NCBI RefSeq assembly: GCF_001457595.1
Contig: NZ_LN831039.1
Span: forward strand, 6,750,001-6,782,000
DNA length: 32,000 nucleotides
Direction: 5' to 3'
Source of the DNA: Mycolicibacterium smegmatis
GTDB taxonomy: Bacteria > Actinomycetota > Actinomycetes > Mycobacteriales > Mycobacteriaceae
The position numbers and the translations under genes were made by a program. The notes under the pieces are model-generated. The model saw only the letters and a list, made by a program, of their open reading frames with translations, ran no database searches and was not told the DNA's origin. Shown here in pieces: positions 15,864-31,799 of this stretch (the stretch's first letter is position 1; every line of letters starts with the position of its first letter).

Positions 15864-15893
15864 CGCCGATCGCCAGGCGGGGTAACGCCGTTC

Positions 15894-15939
15894 GTAACGT
15901 CACGGCGGAAAATTCGGCAGATTTCCGCCGTGGCGTTAC
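15894..15939. terminator. Long hairpin between convergent genes (factor-independent terminator candidate, no U-tract)
   Basis: GTAACGTCACGGCGGAAA (15894-15911) pairs with TTTCCGCCGTGGCGTTAC (15922-15939). That is 17 Watson-Crick pairs plus one G-U, with a 10-nt loop. Confidence 0.5.
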
Positions 15940-15956
15940 GCACGAGAATCCGGGAC

Positions 15957-16475
15957 TCAGGTTGCCAGAACCAAGTCGGCCGACGAGCGCGGGTCATACC
16001 GCGCGATGAACTCCTCTTCCTGCCTCGCCCACCGCTCCCAGTGCGGTGCGTACGTGTCACCGTCGCGCAGCAGTGCCCGGCGCTTGCGGTGGGGTTCGGG
16101 GGCCTCCAGCCAGATTCCGAGATCGGCCAGCGCGCGGTTCGCCGCGGTCAGGGCGCCCACCCCCTCGACGATGATCCGCTGGTGAGCGTCGACGGTGTGC
16201 CACCCGGCCGGGCATCCACTCACCCAGTCCCAGCGCCGCCACCGGCCGGCGCGTCCGAGCGCTCGCGGTTGCAGCAGGGCCTCGCGGATGTGCTCGACGG
16301 CCCAGGCCAGCCCGTCCCAGCCCGGGTAGATGTCGTCGAGGCTGACAACGACGCTGGACTCCCAGGCCTGGCTCAACTGCCGGGCCAGCGTCGTCTTGCC
16401 GGACCCGGATCGCCCGTCGATCAGGACCGTGCGCGCGTCACCGCCCAGGGCGCCCAGGATGTCAGCGGTGGCCAA
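15957..16475 (-). CDS. P-loop nucleoside/nucleotide-kinase-like protein (uridine-kinase-like fold), function unknown
   Basis: Walker A motif is IDGRSGSGKTTLA, followed by SLDDIYPGW and a IIVEGVGAL strand. 172 aa. The only available start is TTG at 16475, which overlaps the upstream ecfT-like gene by 14 nt. Confidence 0.65.
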   Translation of the reverse strand: MATADILGALGGDARTVLIDGRSGSGKTTLARQLSQAWESSVVVSLDDIYPGWDGLAWAVEHIREALLQPRALGRAGRWRRWDWVSGCPAGWHTVDAHQRIIVEGVGALTAANRALADLGIWLEAPEPHRKRRALLRDGDTYAPHWERWARQEEEFIARYDPRSSADLVLAT

Positions 16476-17244
16476 TGAAATTCCAGTGCCCGGTGGCGAC
16501 CGACACCGAGATCGCCGCGGCCGCGATCACGAAAGCCGCCAGGATCAGCGCGGATTCACGCATACCGAACCGCGACGGCCGGGCCCAAGTTCTTCTTGGG
16601 TGGGCACCGAACCCGCGGGCCTCCATCGCGGTCGCCAGCATCGATCCCCGGCGCACCGCCGAGACCAGCAGCGCGAAACCCTGTGCGGCGAAACGGCGCA
16701 GCCGGTCCTGGTCGGCGACCCCTCGTGCCCGGCGCGCATAGCCGAGGTACCGCCAGTCCTGACCGAGCAACCCCACCATGCGCAACCCGGCCAGCGCGCC
16801 GAGTACGAACCGGGCGGGCAGTCGCAACACCTGCCCGAGCCCATCGGCGAGTTCGGTCGGGTCGGTGTCGATGAACAGGATCACCGACGGCAGCGCGATG
16901 GCCAGCACACGCAGAAATGTGGCCAACGCCAGCGAGATCGAGCCGTCGCTGACGGTGATGAGCAGGAAATGCCAGTGCACGGTGCCGCTCTGCTCGCCGT
17001 ACAGCAGGATCGTCACGCCGGTGAGCGCGGCGGCCAGCAGCACGAGCGCACCGCGCGTGAGCAGCGTGCGGACCGGCACCTTCAGCACCAGCATGAGGAC
17101 GATCTCCAGCACCAGCGCGGTCGCGGCCGACACCCAGTCCACGCTGAGCACCAGGCCCAGCGCGATCACCAGCGCGGCCGCGAGTTTCGCGACCGGATTG
17201 ATGCCCACGCGCCGGATGGGCGCACCGTCGACGGTGATGCTCAC
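16462..17244 (-). CDS. ykoC: ECF transporter transmembrane (T) component, YkoC/CbiQ family
   Basis: GTG at 17244 overlaps the ATPase stop (GTGA). It is a multi-TM protein with the T-component signature ARRARG...A.AMEARGFG near the C-terminus. Confidence 0.8.
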   Translation of the reverse strand: MSITVDGAPIRRVGINPVAKLAAALVIALGLVLSVDWVSAATALVLEIVLMLVLKVPVRTLLTRGALVLLAAALTGVTILLYGEQSGTVHWHFLLITVSDGSISLALATFLRVLAIALPSVILFIDTDPTELADGLGQVLRLPARFVLGALAGLRMVGLLGQDWRYLGYARRARGVADQDRLRRFAAQGFALLVSAVRRGSMLATAMEARGFGAHPRRTWARPSRFGMRESALILAAFVIAAAAISVSVATGHWNFIGHR

Positions 17245-18716
17245 CGGCCGGCCTTCGCAAGGGCCTCGGGCGCCGATATCTCGATGTGCCGATCGGCCAG
17301 CAGGTCGGCGAAGTCGAGGTCGTGGGTCACGGCGACCACCGCGGTGCCCTCGTCGGCGATCTCGGCGAGCAGGCGCACCAGTTCCTCCCACGTGGTGCGG
17401 TCCTGCCCGAAGGTGGGCTCGTCGAGGACGATCAGCTCGGGCTGGGTCGCCAGGACCGTGGCCACCGACAGGCGCCGCTTCTGCCCACCGGACAGTGTGT
17501 AGGGGTTCACGTCGGCGAACTCGGTGAGGTGCAGCCGCTCCAGCAGCGCGTCACACACCGCGGTGATCGACGCCGGGTCGCGCTTGAGCGCACGCGGTCC
17601 GAGCGCCAACTCGTCGCGCACCCTGCCGGTGAGGAACTGGTGTTCGGGGTTCTGGAACACGCTGCCGATGCGGGTGAGCAGTTCGCGGGACCGCCAGCGC
17701 ACGGGCTCACGCCGGTGCGGTGCGGGCGCGAAAGCGGCCTCGGCGGAGAACCGACCGTCGCGTGGCGGCAGCAGACCGCCGAGTGTGAGTGCCAGCGCGG
17801 ACTTCCCGGCGCCGTTCGGTCCGGTGACCACGGTGGTCGCGGCCCGGTCGATGTCGAACGTGAGGCGTTCGGTGACCGGTCCCCCGCGGTACCCGACGGC
17901 CAGGTCGGCGGCCGAGAGCAACGCCTGCCCGGGGGCACCCGCGCGGGTGATGTGCGGCAGTTCGGCCCCGGGCACCCACACCCCGGCGCGGGTCAGCCGA
18001 TCACGTTGCTGTGCCAGAGTTTCCGCGGCCGGGCCGTCGGCGACGATCTCGCCTGCCGCACCCAGCACGATCACCCGGTCGACCACGGGAAGCCACACCG
18101 CGGTGCGGTGCTCGACGACGATCAGGGTGGCACCGGTCTGTTCGGCGGCCGCGGCGACAGCGTCGCGGACCTCGAGCACGCCTGCCGGGTCGAGGTTGGC
18201 GGTCGGCTCGTCGAGCAGGATCAGGCCCGGGTCCATCGCGAGCACGCCTGCGAGCGCCAGACGTTGCTGCTGCCCGCCGGAGAGATGGCCGGTGTCGTGC
18301 ATGAGCGGCAGCGCCAACCCCACCGCGGCGAGCGCGCGGCGCACGCGCGGCCAGATGGCCTGCGGCGCGACGTTGAAGTTCTCCATGCCGAACGCGACGT
18401 CGTCGCCCACGCGCGACAGGATGACCTGCGAGTCCGGGTTCTGCAGGACCATGCCGATGCGGTCGCGCCGCTGCGCGGGCGGCACCCCGTCGACCAGCAG
18501 GCGTCCCGCCTCATCGCCGTCCTCGCTGTCGCCGAGCACCCCGGCCAGGCCGTGCAGAAGTGTCGACTTTCCCGATCCGCTGGCACCGAGGAGCAGCACC
18601 CGCTCACCGGGTTCGATGGTCACGTCGAGATTCCGCAGCGCCCAGCGAGGGCGTCCGGCGTGACGCCAGGACCAACCCGATGCGGTGACGGCGACGCCGC
18701 CCTGCGGTGTGCTCAT
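17241..18716 (-). CDS. ykoD: ECF transporter fused double ATPase (A-A' components), YkoD type
   Basis: ATG at 18716 overlaps the upstream stop (ATGA). There are two complete ABC cassettes. The first has GASGSGKST, LSGGQQQRLALA and LLDEPT. The second has GPNGAGKSA, LSGGQKRRLSVA and VLDEPT. Confidence 0.9.
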   Translation of the reverse strand: MSTPQGGVAVTASGWSWRHAGRPRWALRNLDVTIEPGERVLLLGASGSGKSTLLHGLAGVLGDSEDGDEAGRLLVDGVPPAQRRDRIGMVLQNPDSQVILSRVGDDVAFGMENFNVAPQAIWPRVRRALAAVGLALPLMHDTGHLSGGQQQRLALAGVLAMDPGLILLDEPTANLDPAGVLEVRDAVAAAAEQTGATLIVVEHRTAVWLPVVDRVIVLGAAGEIVADGPAAETLAQQRDRLTRAGVWVPGAELPHITRAGAPGQALLSAADLAVGYRGGPVTERLTFDIDRAATTVVTGPNGAGKSALALTLGGLLPPRDGRFSAEAAFAPAPHRREPVRWRSRELLTRIGSVFQNPEHQFLTGRVRDELALGPRALKRDPASITAVCDALLERLHLTEFADVNPYTLSGGQKRRLSVATVLATQPELIVLDEPTFGQDRTTWEELVRLLAEIADEGTAVVAVTHDLDFADLLADRHIEISAPEALAKAGR

Positions 18717-19342
18717 CTTGCCGCGGTGCGGCCGGACGCGAACCGGGACAGGGCGCCGGTCCTGGCCAGGCCCCGTACCGCGTACCATGACAGCGCCCCG
18801 GCCACGAGCGCGCCGGACACGACGGCCGAGACCGTGTAGATCAGCGTGAACGCCGCTGCCGACCCGGGGTACCAGAGGATGAGATCGTTGATCGCCAGCG
18901 CGAGCCCGGCGACCGCACCGGACAGGATCGCGACCGGCAGGTTCCACACCCGGTACAGGAACACCGCGAACACGAGTTCGGCGCCGATTCCCTGGACCAG
19001 TCCCGATTCGAGCGTGAGCACACCCCACTGGTTGCCGACCAGCGCTGACACGGTCGCGGCGACCAGTTCGCCGTAGAGCGCGGCGCCCGGCTTGCGGATG
19101 ACCAGTGCGGTGAGCACACCGGCGAACAGCCACCCGCCCCCGAGCAGGGCCTGCAGTCCGGGCAGCGCCGCCGACAGCGGCGCACCGATCGGGTTGGACG
19201 CGATGTTCCACATCACGAAAACCAGGCCAGCGGCGACCGCGAGCACGCTGGCCACCACGATGTCGACGACGCGCCACCGGTAGGTGCGGGGACGGTCCTG
19301 TGGGACGAAGGGCCCGGAATCGGATCGGGAAACATCGGTCAT
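18713..19342 (-). CDS. ykoE: ECF transporter substrate-specific (S) component, YkoE-like (thiamine-precursor/HMP importer)
   Basis: 209 aa, about 6 TM. It is the first gene of the operon, immediately downstream of a TPP riboswitch. The order S, double ATPase, T matches ykoEDC. Confidence 0.75.
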   Translation of the reverse strand: MTDVSRSDSGPFVPQDRPRTYRWRVVDIVVASVLAVAAGLVFVMWNIASNPIGAPLSAALPGLQALLGGGWLFAGVLTALVIRKPGAALYGELVAATVSALVGNQWGVLTLESGLVQGIGAELVFAVFLYRVWNLPVAILSGAVAGLALAINDLILWYPGSAAAFTLIYTVSAVVSGALVAGALSWYAVRGLARTGALSRFASGRTAAR

Positions 19343-19347
19343 CAGTT

Positions 19348-19440
19348 CACACTCCCTACGCCGGCATTACCCGGACAGGTTCATACGGTCGACGGCCCTC
19401 AGCCGTCCTCTCAGCGCACTCGGTGTGCACTCCCGCGTGG
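19348..19440 (-). promoter_or_regulatory. TPP (THI-box) riboswitch
   Basis: The minus-strand RNA reads CACGCGGGAGUGCACACCGAGUGCGCUGAGAGG-(GACGGCUGAGGGCCGUC)-GACCGUAUGAACCUGUCCGGGUAAUGCCGGCGUAGGGAGUGUG. It carries the conserved CUGAGA, ACCUG...GGGUAAUGCCGGCGUAGGGA core and is collinear with the E. coli thiM aptamer. Confidence 0.9.
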
Positions 19441-19561
19441 GTTGTTCAGGCATCAACGTACCCGAAATCGGCCGCTGTGCGCTTACCGATGGTTTTGTCG
19501 GGGTACCCCTCACCGTCCCCTGCGCGGTACGAGGGGATCGCGAGGGAACACGGAGGACGAG

Positions 19562-20911: not shown

Positions 20912-21400
20912 GTGCAGACTTTCCTTCCCTGTCCGGATTTCGCCGATACCGCGCGCGTGCTCGATCCACGACGGCTGGGCAAGCAGCGCGCCGAGACCAT
21001 CCAGGTGTTGCGTGCGCTCACCGTGCCCGGGTACGGGTGGCGGCATCACCCGGCCGCGGCGATGTGGGCGGGTTACGAGGAGGCCCTGGTGCGCTACGGC
21101 CTTGTGGTCTGCGAGGAATGGATCGCCCGCGGTCATCAGGACGCCAGCACCGCGACGCTTCTCGCCCACCTGCAGACCGGAACGGGTCTGGCCACCGTGC
21201 GTGACCAGGAAGCGCTGGCGCGCACTCACGATCTGCCACCGTGGCTCGGGGACAAGGCGTTTCACCTCAGCCACCAATCCTCGCTGCTGCGCAAGGATCC
21301 GGTGCACTACGGCCCCTACTTTCCCGGTGTCCCCGATGACCTGCCGTACGTGTGGCCCAGATCGGACCGCGAACGGCGCGTGCCGATCACCAGCGTTTGA
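20912..21400 (+). CDS. Conserved hypothetical protein (MQTFLP...RRLGKQR family; possibly pyrimidine-dimer DNA-glycosylase-like)
   Basis: GTG at 20912 lies 3 nt after the permease stop. GC3 is high. The N-terminus MQTFLPCPDFADTARVLDPRRLGKQRAETIQVL resembles a family I recall from actinobacteria and phages. The function call is from memory only. Confidence 0.5.
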   Translation: MQTFLPCPDFADTARVLDPRRLGKQRAETIQVLRALTVPGYGWRHHPAAAMWAGYEEALVRYGLVVCEEWIARGHQDASTATLLAHLQTGTGLATVRDQEALARTHDLPPWLGDKAFHLSHQSSLLRKDPVHYGPYFPGVPDDLPYVWPRSDRERRVPITSV

Positions 21401-31352: not shown

Positions 31353-31799
31353 ATGAACACCGTCCTGTACCTCAGCGCCTCCGGCGCGACCTATGAAACC
31401 GATGCATACACCCCGGCCGACATCACCCGCCTGGTCCGCGGCCACGGCCTGCAGAGCCTGACCAGCACCGACCGGCAGTTCGACTTCTGGTTCAGCCCGG
31501 CCCTGCTCCACTGCCAGCGCCGCACCAACCGCGTCGCCACCGAGTTGCTCCTGGCCACCACCGGTTTCACACCCAAAGACGTCCCGCTGCTGCGCGGCGC
31601 GGTGGTGATCGCCACCCACGACACCGACGGCGAACTCGACGGCCTGAGCTGGCAACAACTCGACACTCTCGTCGCCCGGCACCACGCACTGACAAAGCGT
31701 GACCGCAAGAGGCTTCGCCGCCGCATCGGACGTGACTGCCTCCCGGCAGCCGAGTCCCTGATCGGCCCGGCAGCGGGCCGTCCACACGCGCCGGCGTAG
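31353..31799 (+). CDS. Hypothetical protein, DUF3846-like pattern
   Basis: 148 aa. GC3 is very high in this frame, unlike the antisense ORFs. The FDFWF.......NRVATELL.......D...LRGAVVIATHDTDGEL pattern resembles DUF3846, from memory. Confidence 0.5.
   Translation: MNTVLYLSASGATYETDAYTPADITRLVRGHGLQSLTSTDRQFDFWFSPALLHCQRRTNRVATELLLATTGFTPKDVPLLRGAVVIATHDTDGELDGLSWQQLDTLVARHHALTKRDRKRLRRRIGRDCLPAAESLIGPAAGRPHAPA

Follow-up and report, generated by a model that had tools for sequence, protein, structure and literature searches.

The YkoEDC importers, which belong to the group I energy-coupling factor (ECF) transporters, form a well-known operon type in thiamine metabolism. YkoE of Bacillus subtilis, the substrate-capture (S) component, was crystallised with thiamine bound very tightly (PMC5037267), and comparative genomics separates a hydroxymethylpyrimidine (HMP)-type YkoEDC from a B1-type YkoEDC2 (PMC6593275). 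Thiamine salvage is known to use the kinases ThiK, ThiM and ThiN (PMC6593275, PMC3020362), and on thiamine itself only ThiK and ThiN/TPK act. Reports describe ThiK for E. coli and ThiN for B. subtilis (PMC3020362). In this work, a stretch of 32,000 nucleotides (nt) of Mycolicibacterium smegmatis was analysed (contig NZ_LN831039.1, 6,750,001 to 6,782,000; this whole stretch is called the window, and positions are counted from its first letter), in which a ykoEDC operon ends in a gene for a protein of 172 amino acids (aa) with a Walker A motif. The family of the fourth gene is uncharacterised, and its specific association with this operon type is conserved, which makes the gene a promising candidate for a thiamine-salvage kinase that is not orthologous to the known ones. 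We give about an even chance to the reading that the protein is an active small-molecule kinase which, as the fourth cistron of a thiamine-type importer operon, traps an imported thiamine-related alcohol.

The operon lies on the minus strand. It begins with a thiamine pyrophosphate (TPP; THI-box) riboswitch aptamer (19336–19446; Rfam RF00059, 66 bits, with the gathering score at 54.3, E = 4.9e-11), followed by ykoE for the S component (18713–19342; 209 aa; Pfam PF09819, E = 1.7e-39), ykoD for a fused double ATP-binding cassette (ABC) ATPase (17241–18716; 491 aa; two ABC_tran domains, E = 2e-48), ykoC for the T component (16462–17244; 260 aa; Pfam CbiQ PF02361, E = 1.1e-21) and the gene for the P-loop protein of uridine-kinase fold (15957–16475; 172 aa; NCBIfam NF005115). 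Since one operon combines a PF09819 S component with a duplicated ABC ATPase and a T component of the CbiQ type, the unit is identified as a YkoEDC group I ECF operon; with the ECF ATPase models of NCBIfam, YkoD scored 298–311 bits, slightly below the curated cut-offs. As read in the sequence, the ATG of ykoD overlaps the ykoE stop in an ATGA, the GTG start of ykoC overlaps the ykoD stop in a GTGA, and the TTG start of the kinase gene at 16475 gives a 14-nt overlap with ykoC, the TGA stop of which occupies 16464–16462. An earlier sequence-only reading of this DNA had described the same gene order and the same three junctions, and all of them were found. Its range, 15957–19440, clips the 5' end of the riboswitch, which reaches to 19446, and omits a long palindromic hairpin at 15888–15945. 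This hairpin (fold energy –36.6 kcal/mol; z = –4.9 relative to shuffled sequences, with none of 200 shuffles folding as well) lies 12 nt past the kinase stop, in the gap that separates the kinase gene from an mpaB-like gene in convergent orientation, and is probably a bidirectional terminator, without a U-tract after it. There is no room between the operon genes for a separate promoter, and the only hairpin follows the kinase gene. A scan for sigma-70 promoters gave no match, which is uninformative for mycobacteria. No start other than the TTG is possible 5' of the Walker A motif, and its position agrees with the N-termini of the aligned homologues; moreover, the G+C content of third codon positions in the kinase gene (0.88) matches that of the other three genes (0.87–0.88 in all four).

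The 172-aa protein matched NF005115 (PRK06547, "hypothetical protein") with 243.5 bits, well above the cut-off of 173 (E = 7.8e-73), and its residues 10–170 aligned with positions 11–170 of the 172 in the model. Pfam returned only marginal matches to generic P-loop families (AAA_18, 30 bits). An exhaustive search put the size of the NF005115-type family at 2,349 representative clusters (50% identity, E ≤ 0.001), and close homologues carry inconsistent names, namely "uridine kinase", "nucleoside/nucleotide kinase family", "AAA family ATPase", "adenylate kinase" and "aminobenzoate synthetase". A zeta-toxin or defence function, suggested by one UniRef name, was unsupported by the Pfam matches of the window protein. 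Diverse members share the signature DGxSGxGK[ST], [LM]DxxYPGWDGL, WDW, [IV]EGxG and RxxRAxxRDGxxYxxHWxxWAxQE, which appears in the window protein as GRSGSGKT (21–28), LDDIYPGWDGL (46–56), WDW (82–84), IVEG (102–105) and RKRRALLRDG (130–139). The residues G21–T28, D47/D48, E104–G105 and R130/R133/R137–D138 are invariant or at least 90% conserved across the family.

A sequence search against the PDB gave P-loop matches only, and profile and fold searches were needed. The AlphaFold2 model of the protein had a predicted local distance difference test score of 91.3 and a predicted template modelling (TM) score of 0.88. In Foldseek, the top 50 PDB matches of this model included human UCK2, the Thermus uridine kinase, 1rz3, phosphoribulokinases and the pantothenate kinase of Mycobacterium tuberculosis, with E-values down to 1e-9, TM scores of 0.57–0.73 (0.65–0.73 for uridine kinase, phosphoribulokinase and pantothenate kinase) and 14–26% identity. 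The family profile reached E = 1e-18 with 1rz3 and about 1e-12 with uridine kinases, and Nrk1 gave a weak match (E = 2.5e-4). In the profile alignment to uridine kinases, LDDxY corresponds to MDHYY of the Thermus enzyme, which contains the acceptor-activating Asp, WDW corresponds to YDF, the hhhEG motif to ILEG, and the lid to RxxRxxxRD. The modelled structure thus indicates a uridine-kinase-like P-loop fold with the phosphotransfer machinery intact, and the Foldseek matches agree with the fold proposed in the sequence-only reading. Judged by its sequence, the window protein does not belong to the bona fide uridine kinases, as the Udk models TIGR00235 and NF004018 gave 23.6 and 25 bits against cut-offs of 180–220, and only in the P-loop region. 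No match to ThiD, ThiM, ThiK or TPK/ThiN was obtained in Pfam or NCBIfam (E ≤ 0.01), in agreement with the earlier claim that the protein is distinct from these enzymes, and the known thiamine salvage kinases were absent from the top 50 Foldseek matches. Literature searches on the family, or on a ykoEDC-linked kinase, found no publication.

The genomic linkage was studied in the 80 best loci encoding a family member, with one genome per species; ykoE, ykoD and ykoC were located by tblastn, and the counts rest on tblastn and called genes. The alignment for the locus search was restricted to sequences sharing YPGWDGL, and the bias to this motif and to the best tblastn scores means that only Mycobacteriaceae and Microbacteriaceae were sampled. 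The ykoEDC genes adjoin the kinase gene in 38 of the 80 loci, comprising all 16 from Mycobacteriaceae and 22 from Microbacteriaceae (Agromyces, Leifsonia, Salinibacterium, Glaciihabitans, Planctomonas, Herbiconiux, Rhodoglobus, Lacisediminihabitans, Parafrigoribacterium, Terrimesophilobacter and several metagenome-assembled genomes). The kinase gene is located 3' of ykoC in 36 of these loci, where its candidate start ranges from 22 nt inside ykoC to 7 nt past the ykoC stop. The 14-nt overlap is available in 14/14 mycobacterial loci with this gene order, so the kinase reading frame is not a chance open reading frame (ORF), and it is also available in several Microbacteriaceae. In the two other loci (L015 and L016) the order is rearranged and the kinase gene and ykoEDC are still adjacent. 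The linkage is strong and spans two orders, the riboswitch linkage is frequent and not obligatory, and the kinase travels with ykoEDC in three actinobacterial families. The sequence-only reading had tied its proposal to a conserved linkage with thiamine regulons, and this linkage was found, with frames that nearly always overlap or almost touch.

In a neighbour-joining tree, a ykoEDC-linked clade, a Microbacterium clade, a clade fused to PabB (aminodeoxychorismate synthase component I) and outliers were separated. The mycobacterial kinases stand beside an Agromyces sequence inside the ykoEDC-linked Microbacteriaceae clade of this distance tree, which carries no support values. This placement suggests that the ykoEDC–kinase cassette may have moved horizontally as a block, and such a transfer would mean fewer independent linkage events. 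A locus labelled Streptomyces sp. L7 (L067) is nearly collinear with those of Leifsonia (L071 and L073), and the kinases group in the tree; its genus label looks doubtful.

The riboswitches of all loci were scored with R1, a covariance model made from 26 ykoE leaders. This model was built because the gathering threshold of Rfam (54.3) narrowly missed real TPP riboswitches with scores of 53.2–53.6 bits. Clear TPP riboswitches upstream of ykoE in L015 (6651–6763; 53.6 bits) and L067 (4874–4975; 53.2 bits) score just below it, so annotation at the default threshold misses such riboswitches in these actinobacteria. With R1, 26 of the 37 assessable linked loci and the window were found to have a TPP riboswitch directly upstream of ykoE (89–120 bits), and the riboswitch of the window scored 93.7 bits. 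The latter is the sole TPP riboswitch in the window according to Rfam and a full unfiltered R1 scan. A second candidate at 31410–31495, a loose regular-expression match, was ruled out, as neither R1 nor Rfam matched there. The 3' flank of the aptamer in the window runs into GGGAG, a Shine-Dalgarno-like element 9 nt before the ykoE AUG at 19342, and for this reason sequestration of the ribosome-binding site is the likely mode of control. In L015 (6062–6860) and L016 (8001–8815) the order on one strand is kinase, TPP riboswitch, ykoEDC; the kinase gene lies upstream of the riboswitch and is therefore outside its control, though adjacent.

The YkoE of the window matched the thiamine-bound YkoE of B. 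subtilis (PDB 5EDL) with E = 1e-23. Of the five residues that contact thiamine in 5EDL, the window protein keeps three (W49, Q95 and D131), E77 being replaced by Ser and Y46 by Gly. Among 37 actinobacterial YkoE sequences, the pyrimidine-stacking W49 and the thiazole-contacting D131 are present in all 37 and Q95 in 33, with Ser in the place of E77 and Gly or Ala in the place of Y46. This residue pattern fits thiamine, and HMP would also be compatible with it. The sequence-only reading had described YkoEDC as an importer of thiamine-related pyrimidines, which is incomplete, since B. subtilis YkoE binds thiamine (PMC5037267) and both HMP-type and B1-type systems are listed (PMC6593275); HMP had been the substrate in the first prediction for this transporter.

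We hypothesize that the four genes work as one unit of import and trapping; translational control by the riboswitch, the kinase activity and its substrate are what we infer here. At low TPP, the riboswitch would leave the ribosome-binding site of ykoE free, and the three overlaps (ATGA, GTGA and 14 nt) would couple the translation of ykoE, ykoD, ykoC and the kinase gene into one unit. The importer would then admit a thiamine-related alcohol, and the kinase would phosphorylate its primary hydroxyl, so that the imported compound is trapped and committed to TPP synthesis. At high TPP, ligand binding would sequester the GGGAG/AUG region and the whole unit would be switched off. Uridine kinase, nicotinamide riboside kinase, pantothenate kinase and phosphoribulokinase share a fold that phosphorylates primary alcohols, and by analogy thiamine, HMP and the thiazole alcohol would all qualify as substrates. 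The favoured substrate is thiamine, because B. subtilis YkoE binds it; it would be converted to thiamine monophosphate and then by ThiL to TPP. A thiamine importer would need a kinase ahead of ThiL, given that only ThiK and ThiN/TPK act on thiamine and that the window protein matches neither. The fallback substrate is HMP, which would be converted to HMP phosphate. Since de novo producers of thiamine have ThiD for the conversion of HMP, a second enzyme for this step would be superfluous there, and a thiamine kinase would fill a gap in the pathway.

Several observations weigh against this trapping role. The core pocket and motif residues are identical in all clades, only W92/H93 being specific to the ykoEDC-linked group, so one family-wide function would have to fit all genomic contexts. 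Furthermore, the Asp of WDW aligns with the Asp by which uridine kinases bind the ribose hydroxyls, and this could indicate a riboside as substrate. With R1, no riboswitch was found in 11 loci which have both ykoEDC and the kinase gene, ten of them mycobacterial (L001, L002, L004–L008, L011, L012 and L014; the M. fortuitum group and relatives, among them M. setense, M. septicum and M. peregrinum) and one from Agromyces (L024). The ykoE leader of L001 is only about 88 nt long and contains no aptamer, and the genes upstream of it, for a glyoxalase and a GNAT acetyltransferase, are not thiamine-related. The TPP control which the sequence-only reading had assigned to the kinase gene thus agrees with the riboswitch upstream of ykoE in 26 linked loci, but does not extend to these 11 nor to L015 and L016, where the riboswitch is downstream of the kinase gene. 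In about 42 loci, nearly all from Microbacterium and the others from a few relatives, the kinase gene has neither ykoEDC nor a riboswitch within 8 kb. The Microbacterium gene is found at the same chromosomal position as in ykoEDC-bearing relatives, beside DUF2017, ClpS and Zincin_1, and in annotated loci the site of ykoEDC is taken up by gatCAB, dinB and a 105-aa ORF; in this genus the kinase has thus been kept after the neighbouring transporter was lost. In the two Microbacterium loci studied in detail, an ORF of 105–106 aa without a family match (L066 7625–7942; L088 8697–9017) overlaps the kinase start in the place of ykoC. The 105-aa ORF was ruled out as a ykoC remnant, having no similarity to ykoC and no family match. 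In Jiangella (L085 6688–9461; L086 6706–9459), the gene of a distant member abuts or overlaps by one base an upstream gene for an Ala_racemase_N-type pyridoxal phosphate-dependent enzyme and is followed by a gene for a MOSC protein; the rib and his operons are at a distance of a few kb, and these loci contain no thiamine genes.

The last of the points against trapping comes from the Micrococcaceae, in which the kinase domain is the N-terminus of a 670–720-aa fusion with PabB, encoded in a cluster with pabC. The fusion occurs in at least seven named genera, among them Arthrobacter, Glutamicibacter, Paeniglutamicibacter, Pseudarthrobacter, Paenarthrobacter and Neomicrococcus, with 45–77% identity, and four kinase::pabB loci were examined (L081 8001–10013, L082 8001–10034, L089 9001–11061 and L090 9001–11049). 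The gene order is a low-molecular-weight phosphatase-like gene, which overlaps or abuts the fusion, then kinase::pabB, cls and pabC, the last for aminodeoxychorismate lyase (284 bits). Three of the four loci (Glutamicibacter, Neomicrococcus and Paeniglutamicibacter) have a ykoE-D-C unit in convergent orientation after pabC, about 2.5 kb from the kinase domain; in L081, the sole one of these three which was scanned for riboswitches, a TPP riboswitch precedes ykoE. The fusion is the likely source of the wrong name "aminobenzoate synthetase" on stand-alone mycobacterial homologues. Four proteins of 438–565 aa (P0182, P0230, P0244 and P0229) were rejected as new fusion architectures, as they look like frameshifted PabB fusions with Arg/Pro-rich tails. 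The salvage model does not explain the Microbacterium, Jiangella and PabB-fusion cases.

A first alternative is a general kinase of nucleosides, ribosides or nucleotides, or another housekeeping kinase, the position of which after ykoC would be an inherited accident of gene order that spread with the cassette and is unrelated to thiamine. We regard this explanation as rather unlikely. Uridine kinases provide the fold and the best profile matches, the WDW Asp has its counterpart in their ribose-binding YDF Asp, members in Microbacterium, Jiangella and of the Angustibacter type have no thiamine context, 11 linked loci have no riboswitch, and the tree placement of the mycobacterial genes beside Agromyces suggests transfer of the cassette as a block. 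However, the score of 25 bits is far from the 180–220 which the curated uridine kinase models require, the identity to uridine kinases is only 15–24%, and the Trp-rich motifs YPGWDGL, WDW and HWxxW are absent from these enzymes. Moreover, the linkage survives the rearrangement in L015 and L016 and the long divergence of Mycobacteriaceae and Microbacteriaceae with overlapping frames kept, and ykoEDC is still near the gene in Micrococcaceae.

The PabB fusion points in another direction, to a role in or near para-aminobenzoic acid (PABA)/folate or chorismate metabolism, where the protein would phosphorylate an intermediate or a hydroxymethyl heterocycle, or regulate PabB, and the association with ykoEDC would be secondary. 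The fusion is conserved across Micrococcaceae, the fused gene sits with pabC and after the phosphatase-like gene, and both the Walker A and the lid motifs are intact in the fused domains. Nevertheless, none of the 80 stand-alone loci has a pabB at a distance of up to 8 kb, and the fusion is confined to one family in a wholly syntenic region, so that it counts as one evolutionary event. In addition, with the ykoE-D-C unit only 2.5 kb away in three of the four loci, the fusion could stem from simple adjacency, and we know of no kinase step that is established or missing in PABA synthesis. We hold a PABA-related role to be quite improbable. A still smaller chance, very slight in our estimate, is left for a protein that is not a kinase at all but an ATP-binding accessory or regulatory ECF subunit. 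It would occupy the soluble fourth-gene slot held by YkoF in Bacillus (PMC5037267), and some pipelines label homologues "EcfA2"; but both ATPase domains are already present in YkoD, the catalytic Asp on the acceptor side and the lid arginines of phosphotransferases are conserved, and the gene persists without the transporter in Microbacterium.

If the trapping role is true, it would be of consequence beyond this operon. The known thiamine salvage kinases comprise four types (ThiK, ThiM, ThiD and ThiN/TPK), and the family would be a fifth, with a different fold, as a non-orthologous replacement of the known ones. In genome-based predictions of vitamin requirements, either ThiL or ThiN counts as the final step to TPP (PMC6593275). 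Because ThiL acts on thiamine monophosphate, a genome with ThiL and without ThiK and ThiN would have no known route from imported thiamine; the kinase would close this gap for part of the Actinobacteria and improve predictions of auxotrophy. A family of about 2,300 clusters, now labelled "hypothetical", "uridine kinase", "adenylate kinase" or, wrongly, "aminobenzoate synthetase", would gain a function as well. In a more far-reaching version, which we put forward tentatively and hold to be doubtful, NF005115/PRK06547 would be an unrecognised thiamine kinase on the uridine-kinase fold that bridges import and ThiL in actinobacteria without ThiK and TPK, and the PabB fusion would then mark a coupling of thiamine with PABA/folate.

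No other thiamine-related gene was found in the 32,000-nt window. On the plus strand, a gene of the Pyr_excise family (20912–21400; pyrimidine-dimer DNA glycosylase, PF03013 by the annotation of L083) lies beside an amino-acid permease gene that diverges from the ykoE leader.

In comparison with known systems, the window protein has the same P-loop fold as the uridine-cytidine kinase/phosphoribulokinase/pantothenate kinase superfamily (PF00485, PRK) and as 1rz3, an orphan structure of the PRK07667 type from Geobacillus named "possible uridine kinase"; the Walker A motif, the Asp after strand 2, hhhEG and the Arg-rich lid all align. It differs from the PF00485 superfamily in being shorter, with 172 aa, in its own Trp-rich signature (YPGWDGL, WDW and PHWxxWAxQE), and in the context of its family, which includes a thiamine importer and a PabB fusion. 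The operon shares with Bacillus YkoFEDC/YkoEDC the succession of TPP riboswitch, S component, duplicated ATPase and T component. However, the accessory soluble gene encodes a P-loop kinase here and the thiamine/HMP-binding YkoF in Bacillus, and the YkoE pocket differs from that of Bacillus by Ser in the place of E77 and Gly or Ala in the place of Y46. ThiK, which is aminoglycoside-phosphotransferase-like, ThiM and ThiD of the ribokinase fold, and ThiN/TPK resemble the window kinase in the proposed role only, with no relation to it in sequence or fold. The pairing of an importer with a trapping kinase has a precedent in PnuC and the ribosylnicotinamide kinase of NadR. The logic of PnuC/NadR, as of Nrk1, is the same, that of a vitamin importer combined with a P-loop trapping kinase, although it concerns another vitamin and another class of transporter, and the coupling in the present locus is by the operon and its overlapping genes.

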